Shown here piece after piece: positions 8,072-11,000 of a DNA stretch of 64,000 bases. The DNA is taken from UHGV virus genome UHGV-0167633, one strand, 5' to 3'. The position numbers were made by a program. Within the stretch, counting starts at the first letter, position 1. Each line of letters opens with the position of its first letter. The DNA is from a virus.

Positions 8072-11000
8072 TTAACCGATTCTACGAGTTGTCATTTGTT
8101 ACCGGTCAGTCTACACATTTCAGATACTACGTTAAAACAACTCAAGTGCTTCAAGTAGCACATCGTCATCAACACCCAACCCGAAGATGCGGAGATAAAA
8201 TTCAAGCCTTAAGAGGCTTTGTGTATGTTCGTGTAATCCAACCAGTAATAAACTCATCCCCTGATTTAACCTGCACGTAAAGCCATTGACGATCTTTCTT
8301 ATCTAAAATAGCAACAATTGTGTTTTTGCCAATGCATTCAATCACTTCACTATTTAAAGAAGGGCCGACATGCAACCTTACGTTATCACCTGTTATAGCT
8401 CTAAAATTATTAAGATCCTCCCACTGAATATCTTTATTTTCTTGTGTTAGCTTTTGCTTAGATATTGGCTTATCCTCATTTAGAGATAGAAGATATGATT
8501 CCATCTTGTAAATTTGCGATAATGTCTTTTCTTTTGCATAATCAGTTATAGCGCCAAGCACCACTTGATAAAAAATCCACAGAAGGAAGATCTGAATAGG
8601 AGAAGGAAGCGCCTTAAATGAATCAAAAAACGTCGAACTAGATTTATTAAATCCTTTGTTTTGATGCTCACTTTCGGTATGCGCTGATTTTATAGAATCA
8701 TTAGCATAAGCCTGCGCGATAGTAACAAGCCCAAGCTCTACTACTTGCTCTAATAATACACTTCTTGTTTTATTATACTGCTTTATTACTTCTTTAATAT
8801 CTTTGCTTATCTTAATTTTGTAATTTATATTAGAGTGTAATTCTTTAAATACCTCCTCCATATTATTTAAGCCAGCTATCTTATTAATGGCTTCTGAGTG
8901 TTTTCGTAACGGCATAGCCATTTCAGCTTGATTTTTAATTATTTGAATATGCTCATTTGCATCACTGGGAAAAGCCGCCTGATACTGTTTCTGTAAAAAT
9001 ACCATTTGTTCACGAAACTGGTGTGCAATTCTCGTAACTTTTGGTAAAGACTCAAGTTCTTTTCGAAAACAATCATTAATTAATTCTTGTTTTTTAACTG
9101 TTCCAAACTGTTTAACTAAACTCTTGTAAATATATTCTGAATTTAATAAACCACTTATCTTTTTATGCCTCACTCCTTTAATTTCATTTAAATAATCATA
9201 AAAGGCAGTGCCTTCAGCTTTATTATTAGAGTTAAGCGAAATGTGTTTAATATCCTTCACTTTATTCACCGTCATCTTGTTTTAAACACCCGTCATTTTT
9301 AGCTTCTGTATAAATACTGGAAATACCATCCAGAGTGAATGATGTGATTCGACTCGAACCGATATATACATCTATGTTTTTTTCATTTGTAGATGACACT
9401 GCCTTCCAAAATGAATACCATTCCCTACGATTAGGAGCAGTGTTTTGCGTGCCAATATTAAAACTATCCGGGCCAACAATTAAAGTAATTACATCTGCTT
9501 TACGTGATATTGTGTCGCGTGTAGAAAAATCGGCATTCTCTTTTCCTCCGCTTACATACAAATTTCTTCCAGCGATATGATCTTCTGAACCTTCCCTTGC
9601 TCCAGCATCACAAGAAAAGTTAATTGTGTAACCATCGTCATTGGTTGCAGAGATTTCTCTCCACCCTTGCTCACCTCCTACCGTCCAAACGGTAGAACCT
9701 GCCATTGCTGATAATGGCAGAAAAGAGGACATTAATAAAAAGCTATACAATGACTTATACAATTTCATATTTTTATCCTTTTGTTTTTAGATATTATAGG
9801 CATAGTCCATATTGTTAGATCCACTATGCCCAGAGAATTTAATATTATTTATTAAATTATGGGGCTACACCCGGCCCCCTAGCTCGTTCTTCAAGCGTAC
9901 CCTGTACGTTTTGATGGCGCATTCCTGGGGCATTTCTTATTGAGTCAATGCCATTTCTTCCAACATCTTCTTTATTAACGGCATTGCTCGCCACCAGCAC
10001 ACCCCAGCTAGGGATAGCAAAATCAGGAGCGGTTTCGCATGCCTTTACCATATAATCGAAAGTGCTTCGATTGATCTCGTTTGCGTCGGGATTTAATAGG
10101 CGAGAATATTGATATTTAGCATTTTCGTTGGTTGCGACTTTATATAGTTCTTGCTGCACCATCGCTTCAGAAAGTTTAAGACGTTTCATATCTGACAGTA
10201 ACTTCTTGCGCATGGATTCGTCTTGACTGACAGCAAAGCCGTAAACGTGCCCAAGGTATTTCGTATAATCGGTACAAATCTCCTTCACGCTTGATGCTGC
10301 ATTAACAGTCCCAGCCATAAATAATAACGGTAGTAATAGTTTTCTCATTATAACCTCACCTGCCTTATAACTCATTTAGGGTACATATTTTCGCCTTTAA
10401 AAAAAAGAGGTTATTAGATCCAGTTGTGTATTTACTAATCAGATAATGCTCTAATAGATTTGTATTTTTAAGTCGCGAATGCTATCTTTTCGCATCATAT
10501 TGACCTTTTAATCGTTCAGGCTTATAGTTCCGCCGTCGTAGCAAATTCTGCGACCGGGTTTAGCAGCCTGAATGATTGTGCGGACAGCCGCAGATATCCG
10601 ATATTGCGGTATTTTTGTGTCCGTAAAACCGCGTTACGCCCAAATTATGGTGGGGCGTGATGGGGAGGCTTCGGCCTGCTGGTTTCACAATCGCCAGTCT
10701 GCTAACCCCGTCACGTCCTGCCACCTGTTTAGCAGCGGGTAGCAGGTTGTTAAACCTGATTGTGAGGCCGTAACTATGGTTAATGCCAATCCTTGCGCGC
10801 GCCCTGAATTTATCTGGCGTTTCTATTCCTGTAAAAAACACCACTATCACTTCGTTATCGCAGCAACAGAAGACGAAGCACGCTCTCAATTGCCTGATGG
10901 CCCCTGCATTTTTACTGCCCGTTTTTCTACTGACTCGCGCAATTCACTTAGTTACTGGAACCTCCCCTTCTCTGCCGACGTTCAGGGGGGTTTATGAAAA

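Follow-up and report, generated by a model that had tools for sequence, protein, structure and literature searches.

The P1 protein SimC reportedly blocks infection after adsorption (work of Kliem and Dreiseikelmann in 1989 and of Maillou and Dreiseikelmann in 1990, taken together with the P1 annotation), and in that annotation it appears as a periplasmic exclusion protein encoded in the sim locus. The DNA analyzed here, referred to as the window, is a stretch of 64,000 nucleotides from the virus genome UHGV-0167633, a P1-like (Punavirus) phage-plasmid, and it carries at the sim locus a long form of the gene simA, whose predicted secreted product contains a motif in common with Sit, the tape measure protein of P1 (PMC9024508; PMC12810830). 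SimC and the window SimA are alike in belonging to the same cassette and in having a signal peptide. They differ in that SimC, which is processed, has no sequence similarity to SimA or Sit; window SimA likewise showed no similarity to SimB and no PADLOC match, and SimC is absent from the window.

Several exclusion proteins of other phages act on tape measure proteins. T4 Imm binds the tape measure protein gp29, TP-J34 Ltp acts on the tape measure protein, HK97 gp15 is reported to target it at the injection stage, and the SNIPE defence system also contacts a tape measure protein. Imm, Ltp and gp15 are prophage or phage envelope proteins halting DNA entry at the tape-measure step, which is the step proposed here for SimA. 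All three bind the tape measure protein from the membrane, as membrane proteins or lipoproteins, and no report describes a part of that protein within them, whereas SimA is a predicted soluble exported protein that copies a tape-measure segment. The mechanistic model for the SimA proposal comes from the Ff phages, in which pIII N1 placed in the periplasm lowers uptake of the same phage by about 10^4-fold, an effect attributed to sequestration of TolA through a short YGT motif (PMC10424213). There, too, a periplasmic copy of the host-binding piece of an entry protein blocks the same phage; the Ff case differs in that the phage is filamentous, the proteins are not homologous, the blocker is the entry protein itself rather than the product of a dedicated gene, and the partner, TolA, is known.

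A first-pass annotation of the window had placed a secreted protein at 9857-10375 on the minus strand. The open reading frame (ORF) exists, but its start probably lies elsewhere: as first listed it opens at 10375 (MSYKAGEVIM...), and the likely true start is the internal ATG at 10348, which lies 5 nt downstream of a Shine-Dalgarno sequence (GGTGAGG) and is equivalent to the start of a RefSeq coding sequence, 100% identical to the window gene, on the plasmid pEcoUTI1e. The gene (9857-10348, minus strand), supported in addition by a match to phrog_3933 (E=1.7e-113, profile positions 2-162 of 213), encodes 163 residues reading MRKLLLPLLFMAGTVNA followed by ASS...GPGVAP, so that the protein ends ...ERARGPGVAP and not, as first given, ...GPG. 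The first 17 residues (MRKLLLPLLFMAGTVNA; 10298-10348, minus strand) comprise a basic n-region, a 12-residue hydrophobic core and V-N-A in a small-x-small layout, and read as a Sec-type signal peptide with predicted cleavage before ASS and no lipobox, a pattern kept throughout the SimA family. The N-terminal domain that follows (9974-10297, minus strand) is family-specific, with a low-confidence helical prediction, and two cysteines in it are invariant alignment columns, as expected for a periplasmic protein. From these sequence features the product looks periplasmic and exported by the Sec route, in agreement with the first-pass annotation.

The gene occupies the same position as P1 simA, between the C1 operator Oc4/c4 and pmgC, with flanks 95% identical to P1, and is its intact ortholog; the earlier placement at the sim locus was therefore correct. 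P1 SimA (P1_gp043, 52 residues, annotated as "putative superimmunity accessory function") reads MSYKAGEVIMRKLLLPLLFMAGTVNAASSVKEICTDYTKYLGHVY and then AFAINDY-stop, equals residues 1 to about 45 of the window protein, signal peptide included, and diverges after ...KYLGHVY. P1 SimA thus begins like the window protein and then runs into a junction, which makes P1 simA a 5' remnant of a gene whose remainder was replaced by the simB-simC segment. Compared with window SimA, the P1 form has neither the N domain nor the Sit-like motif. Some long forms are already named "simA domain protein" by NCBI, window SimA is 98-99% identical to the database proteins P0001 and P0003, and the family is so far annotated only by name.

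The Sit-like segment of window SimA (NAVNKEDVGRNGIDSIRNAPGMRHQNVQGTLEERARGPGVA; 9863-9985, minus strand) was delimited by BLASTP, hhalign and the family alignment, with the motif stretch reading GMRHQNVQGTLEERARG and its core, N-A-P-G-M-R-H-Q...G....R-A-R-G, encoded at 9866-9934. By BLASTP, residues 131-171 of the ORF aligned with residues 921-957 of Sit (21 of 41 identities, E=1e-7). SimA also matched the Sit family profile phrog_2533 (E=2.7e-5; E=1.2e-7 for a full-length relative), and comparison of the SimA-family profile with a profile of the Sit C terminus using hhalign gave 97.4% probability (E=1.2e-11, 30 columns). The roughly 20-residue motif described in the first-pass annotation is thus real, and in full-length forms it extends to about 50 residues: in the 215-residue form the similarity runs on to ...GPGTNSPMGNLSPEEL, aligned with ...GTGTTTSMGNVRPESL in Sit, and reaches 27 of 52 identities (E=4e-11) when compared with Sit from a P1-like element of metagenomic origin. 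This motif of 30-50 residues is what SimA has in common with Sit. Everything else in Sit is missing from SimA, namely its long helical ruler, a hydrophobic segment rich in Gly, the SLT domain and the 90 conserved residues at the C terminus, and an assignment of SimA itself as a tape measure protein found no SLT match and a phrog_2533 match only at positions 928-963 of 1130.

On the Sit side, the window gene (2507-5881, minus strand; annotated sit in P1 and P7) encodes a P1-type tape measure protein of 1124 residues with a lytic transglycosylase domain (Pfam SLT, residues 742-847, E=1.5e-14). Its copy of the motif (residues 921-957; 3011-3121, minus strand; core at 3014-3082) was located by BLASTP and by a conservation profile over six divergent Sit proteins (E. 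coli, two Salmonella lineages, two metagenomic/Logan elements and Cronobacter JK004), in which an island at residues 902-961 scored 0.78-0.84, against 0.50-0.57 in the flank before it and 0.17-0.37 in the flank after it. The island is located between the SLT domain and the strongly conserved last ~90 residues, with variable linkers on both sides. A second, partial copy (YFDQLGAQMGIDGLYDKLINARGMRSNNSPQP; residues ~983-1014; 2840-2935, minus strand), found by regular expression and seen as an alignment gap elsewhere, is contained in a 43-residue insertion of the E. coli P1-type Sit. The insertion repeats part of the island in tandem and brings in a second GMR; Sit proteins of Salmonella, Klebsiella-type, Cronobacter and Pantoea elements lack it. 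Two alleles of the second copy, INARGMRSNNSPQP (the window) and LRNSPGMRKNNAPEP, occur among the loci listed from IMG/VR, and the latter resembles the IRN[AS]PGMR of SimA.

The distribution of the motif was examined by several searches. A tblastn search with a 60-residue motif query (E<1) of 50,697 phage genomes returned only the gene of the P1-like phage Ro157c2YLVW and sit of P1-like phages, including Cronobacter phage JK004. A word-indexed search with full-length SimA against 5.8 billion proteins returned 22 clusters, all of them SimA family, the long contigs among them measuring about 90 kb. A HMMER profile search run exhaustively over 1.84 billion representatives returned 12 clusters, again all SimA family; a search with Sit residues 860-1124 recovered only Sit fragments. 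A low-complexity or chance origin, raised with the first-pass annotation as the outcome that would undo it, is ruled out by the tblastn specificity, the HMMER search and hhalign, with the motif found in Sit and the SimA family of P1-like genomes and not in unrelated proteins. The other sim-locus proteins (SimB, SimC, Upf50.0/50.5 of P7, the YfjT-like protein and the SH3 protein) had no Sit-like segment when compared with Sit, and the other SimA tails (Cys-Cys module, coiled-coil tail) had no match when compared with phage proteins of these genomes.

This distribution bears on the explanation that the motif is a shared handling signal, recognized by a periplasmic protease, a chaperone or a peptidoglycan feature for maturation or placement, with SimA having a role unrelated to exclusion, such as envelope remodelling or lysogenic conversion with a YfjT-like partner. 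A general host signal would be expected in other exported proteins, whereas this one does not go beyond P1-like Sit and SimA, and the locus is the exclusion locus in P1. Compatible with such a signal are the apparently unstructured stretches that models suggest for the motif in both proteins, its place adjoining the SLT domain in Sit, the constant company of SimA with another secreted protein, and HK97, where entry is reported to require a periplasmic chaperone together with the tape measure protein. On balance, the handling explanation is distinctly unlikely.

Whether the two copies are a recent duplication could be read from their DNA. Over the 23-codon core, simA and sit are identical at 46 of 69 nt and use the same codon at 7 of 16 identical residues, with proportions of synonymous and nonsynonymous differences of pS=0.69 and pN=0.21. 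In E. coli, Salmonella (locus L004) and Pantoea elements the motif DNA of the two genes is identical at 54-55 of 96 positions, with a common codon at 6-7 of 17-18 identical residues. In these three lineages, with different codons used for most identical residues, sit and simA cannot have been duplicated from one another or converted recently, and the first-pass reading of protein-level conservation is borne out.

The Pantoea element is a P1-like one of 94 kb (Candidatus Pantoea alvi PSNIH6, contig PQJV01000018.1; loci L014/L015 and L096) in which simA lies about 19 kb from sit and is followed by a different signal-peptide protein and a large methyltransferase-like ORF, an order unlike that of the E. 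coli, Salmonella and Cronobacter elements. Its SimA is 38% identical overall and still reads NAPGMRHQAVKGSMAERARGDG, its Sit reads NAPGMRHQVATGSMADRAYG, and the replacement of T-L-[AE] by S-M-A (the GSMA variant) was found only in these two proteins, whose motifs are mutual best matches (17/23). This pair, from one lineage, is suggestive of co-variation between SimA and Sit. A systematic co-variation was not upheld, the Pantoea pair alone standing out.

Long simA occurs as several alleles. The homolog in Ro157c2YLVW has 215 residues, and its DNA is near-identical to that of the window gene up to ...GGGGGCCGGGT, the last Gly codon of ...ERARGPG, and unrelated beyond; the junction, placed by pairwise DNA alignment, falls at 9866-9871 (minus strand), right after the last Gly codon of the motif, and the window allele continues with V-A-P and a stop. 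In this short-tail allele of 163 residues, with 153 member sequences, the motif ends within 3 residues of the stop. Among PLSDB plasmids, 267 records contain a simA start, 126 of them long (at least 80% of the protein) and the others a stub (first ~47 residues); a search of 5,426 complete E. coli genomes gave 251 with a simA start (114 long, 137 stub only), and 248 of 252 simA matches there were plasmid-borne. The loci listed from IMG/VR are 80 near-identical E. coli copies, serving for allele counts and not for Sit diversity; 46 of them show a simA start, and long forms are commoner than stubs (33 vs 13), with 215 residues the commonest long allele (20 loci, against 12 of 163 and 1 of 212 residues). 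Intact simA is thus present in about 2% of complete E. coli genomes, and it was also found on P1-like plasmids of Salmonella, Klebsiella, Cronobacter and Pantoea. Phage D6, tried as an outgroup, has no comparable sim locus adjoining icd. Six long SimA database entries (P0002, P0004, P0007, P0008, P0016 and P0019), mostly from Logan read assemblies, have a frameshift at or just before the motif and 205-residue products, which could reflect assembly errors or real pseudogenisation.

Across the family, all members have the signal peptide, an N domain roughly 105 residues long, then a linker and the invariant core N-x-x-G-M-R-x-Q, followed by differing tails of at least three types. E. coli members continue ...V-Q-G-T-L-E-E-R-A-R-G-x-G and then have a predicted long helix (215 residues) or almost nothing (163 residues). 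The Salmonella proteins P0018 and P0035, and also P0017, have the Sit-like continuation in variant form (VEGTLESRARGNG, VEGSLMERARGPG, TQGALERRALG), and some add a Cys-Cys module. Type II members (Klebsiella, Cronobacter and some Salmonella), which make up about half of the family, pass from GMR-x-Q straight into the Cys-Cys module, and in the more distant member P0043 only GMR-x-Q is kept. In the C-terminal part, all members that bear the motif agree at N, G-M-R, Q, G, R-A and G (N-x-x-G-M-R-x-Q...G....RA.G).

Counts by the Nei-Gojobori method between lineages gave saturated synonymous change (pS 0.78-0.96) and a motif pN of 0.21-0.28, and against Pantoea the motif was better kept than the N domain (pN 0.26 and 0.39), which argues for purifying selection on the motif itself. 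Against this result stands the possibility that the motif is an evolutionary leftover, a sit fragment joined to simA by illegitimate recombination and persisting without a function of its own. The locus is certainly highly mosaic: P1 simA is cut at codon ~36-45, the window allele breaks right after the motif, the tails are of several types, and many database copies are frameshifted. The motif core is nevertheless the best-conserved part of the C-terminal half despite saturated synonymous change, it persists in the Pantoea protein even with the N domain there down to 38% identity, and the recombination junctions spare it, all of which makes a functionless remnant very improbable.

The following mechanism is proposed. 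In P1-like phage-plasmids simA opens the variable sim cassette, and it would encode a protein exported by its Sec signal peptide to the periplasm, where this protein would display, on a flexible C-terminal stretch, the linear motif N-x-[PR]-G-M-R-x-Q-x-V-x-G-T-L-x-x-R-A-x-G, otherwise present only in Sit, just downstream of the transglycosylase domain. Sit, which leaves the P1 tail upon contraction (PMC12810830), is expelled into the periplasm at infection, and the motif would be its contact point with a partner it must engage, be it an envelope protein of the host or some further copy or component of the injection machinery. Resident SimA occupying that partner would hinder DNA delivery by a superinfecting P1-like phage. 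That SimA works by such competitive mimicry, directed at a host or envelope partner, and in this way causes superinfection exclusion appears quite possible, if somewhat short of probable. The stronger version, in which long SimA is a dedicated tape-measure mimic whose docking motif was copied from the phage's own injection protein and saturates an envelope factor or a tail-tip site, is tentative and rather doubtful.

Several points weigh against competitive mimicry. Exclusion by P1 is attributed to SimC, and P1 itself has a SimA stub without the motif. Type II SimA keeps only N-A-P-G-M-R-x-Q, yet the Sit of these elements keeps the full motif, so that either the core suffices or the function is independent of mimicry. 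Were mimicry the function, most of it would have to reside in the core, and with about half of the family keeping the core only, there is a limit to how much of the ~20-residue motif can be essential. Within E. coli and Salmonella, the motif of SimA resembles the resident Sit no more than it does foreign Sit proteins. Expression of simA in a lysogen would depend on the region equivalent to PsimA and the adjacent C1 operator Oc4 (10413-10461, 95% DNA identity to P1), shared with the divergent c4-icd-ant operon; PsimA is a predicted promoter in the P1 annotation, and a promoter scan of the equivalent window region gave no strong match. The structural models, finally, are compatible with a flexible linear motif at low confidence. 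An AlphaFold2 (AF2) model of the 215-residue SimA from 11 sequences (predicted local distance difference test, pLDDT, 49) has helices at 35-115, no regular structure at 116-177, which includes the motif, and a long C-terminal helix, and a model of Sit 860-1124 has a pLDDT of 43. A CRISPR interference screen found the sim genes non-essential for P1 lytic growth, a result with no bearing on exclusion (PMC10695390).

The motif could also act on the phage side, as a self-association or docking element of Sit (a trimer contact, or a contact with the tube initiator or hub lumen), in which case periplasmic SimA would bind Sit once ejected, or the tip of the emptied tube, and keep a channel from forming or the DNA from leaving. 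Such direct poisoning would follow known exclusion proteins in binding the tape measure protein, as in Imm with gp29, Ltp, and the contacts made by SNIPE, and the T4 tape measure protein has a domain touching the open tube. In Sit, about 170 residues separate the motif from the C terminus, whose density lies inside the centre of the P1 baseplate (PMC12810830), and the Pantoea co-variation fits a phage-phage contact as well as a common host partner. Neither AF2 model, however, shows a defined interface, and Sit is unresolved in the P1 cryo-electron microscopy maps (PMC12810830); direct poisoning on its own is considered unlikely. Taken together with the host-partner decoy, it makes some form of motif-dependent exclusion by SimA moderately probable.

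Other assignments of SimA found no support. A profile search against PDB, and searches of NCBIfam and PADLOC, gave no match. The label "PTP-like phytase" (PF14566), attached to SimA proteins in precomputed annotation, was treated as spurious and rejected, with a score of 26.8 bits against a cut-off of 27, a match limited to profile positions 46-132, and neither cysteine followed by x5-R.

If competitive mimicry holds, SimA would be a variant of injection-stage superinfection exclusion and not a new category, the motif would pinpoint the residues by which a myophage tape measure protein engages a periplasmic or inner-membrane partner, and SimA could serve as bait for the P1 partner of Sit. How the DNA of contractile-tailed phages passes the periplasm and inner membrane after expulsion of the tape measure is poorly understood, and the literature examined names no host entry factor for P1. 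A motif of 20-30 residues under selection in both Sit and a secreted protein of an exclusion locus can be mutated precisely in either protein and provides a natural bait with which to find the partner. A textbook locus is also re-read, with P1 simA as a relic; the literature searched, which did not include the P1 genome paper (PMC523184), contained no mention of P1 simA as truncated or of a motif common to its intact form and Sit. P1-like elements of this kind spread mcr-1 and CTX-M genes, and if SimA excludes, it would have a bearing on the P1-like plasmids that can co-infect a strain or enter it by transduction.

The surroundings of simA were compared with other P1-like phages. In a megablast search with 8000-10800, P1, P7, RCS47, SJ46 and relatives matched only at the query ends (the pmgC end and the c4/icd end), and the ~2 kb between them vary in content from phage to phage, consistent with the sim locus as a known variable region (PMC9603915). 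The interval holds simC, simB and simA in the P1 annotation, on the strand opposite to c4-icd-ant, two unrelated secreted proteins in P7, two hypothetical genes in Ro157c2YLVW, and in the window three ORFs, all on the minus strand (9857-10375, 9262-9768 and 8202-9275). The gene downstream of simA (9262-9768, minus strand; phrog_3429, E=1.6e-71) encodes a secreted YfjT-like protein of 168 residues with a signal peptide, and long simA is followed by a gene of this family in every enterobacterial locus examined (e.g. L002:1607-2083, L009:3543-4019). The assignment to PF27224 (YfjT) comes from precomputed annotation of orthologous partner genes, and the Pfam search carried out here did not detect the family in the YfjT-like partner. 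The partner is highly divergent across lineages (29-57% identity; the window copy 29-52% to partners at other loci), as if exchanged as a cassette. The window copy is 52% identical to the Salmonella version and 29% to that of Ro157c2YLVW, which fits a recombination junction directly after the motif.

A third gene of the window cassette (8202-9275, minus strand; phrog_7086) encodes 357 residues with a C-terminal bacterial SH3_3 domain and a weak match to an amidase PHROG; it overlaps the stop codon of the YfjT-like gene, is present in pEcoUTI1e and is absent from P1, P7 and Ro157c2YLVW. Directly upstream of simA, on the other strand, Rfam placed the C4 antisense RNA at 10643-10728, with the a1/b1 targets of this RNA at 10522-10574. 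Behind icd, the antirepressor gene (10994-12385, plus strand) encodes 463 residues, against 347 for P1 Ant1, so that the immI operon of the window has a different or extended antirepressor; pEcoUTI1e, with an identical simA, carries an ant of P1 length. Far from the c4 of immI, a second C4-type antisense RNA (75 bits) was found directly after an isrK-like Hfq-binding small RNA (58 bits) at 62845-63055 (plus strand). A sok antitoxin RNA (Rfam, 62 bits against a gathering score of 59) at 15633-15806 (plus strand) adjoins an ORF at 15802-16434 (minus strand), and the two may form a hok/sok-type addiction module. Finally, a tRNA cluster at 33222-35244 (plus strand) comprises Asn(GTT), Thr(TGT) and Met(CAT), each reported by both Rfam and ARAGORN, and a tRNA-Ser(TGA) at 34119-34205 reported by ARAGORN only.

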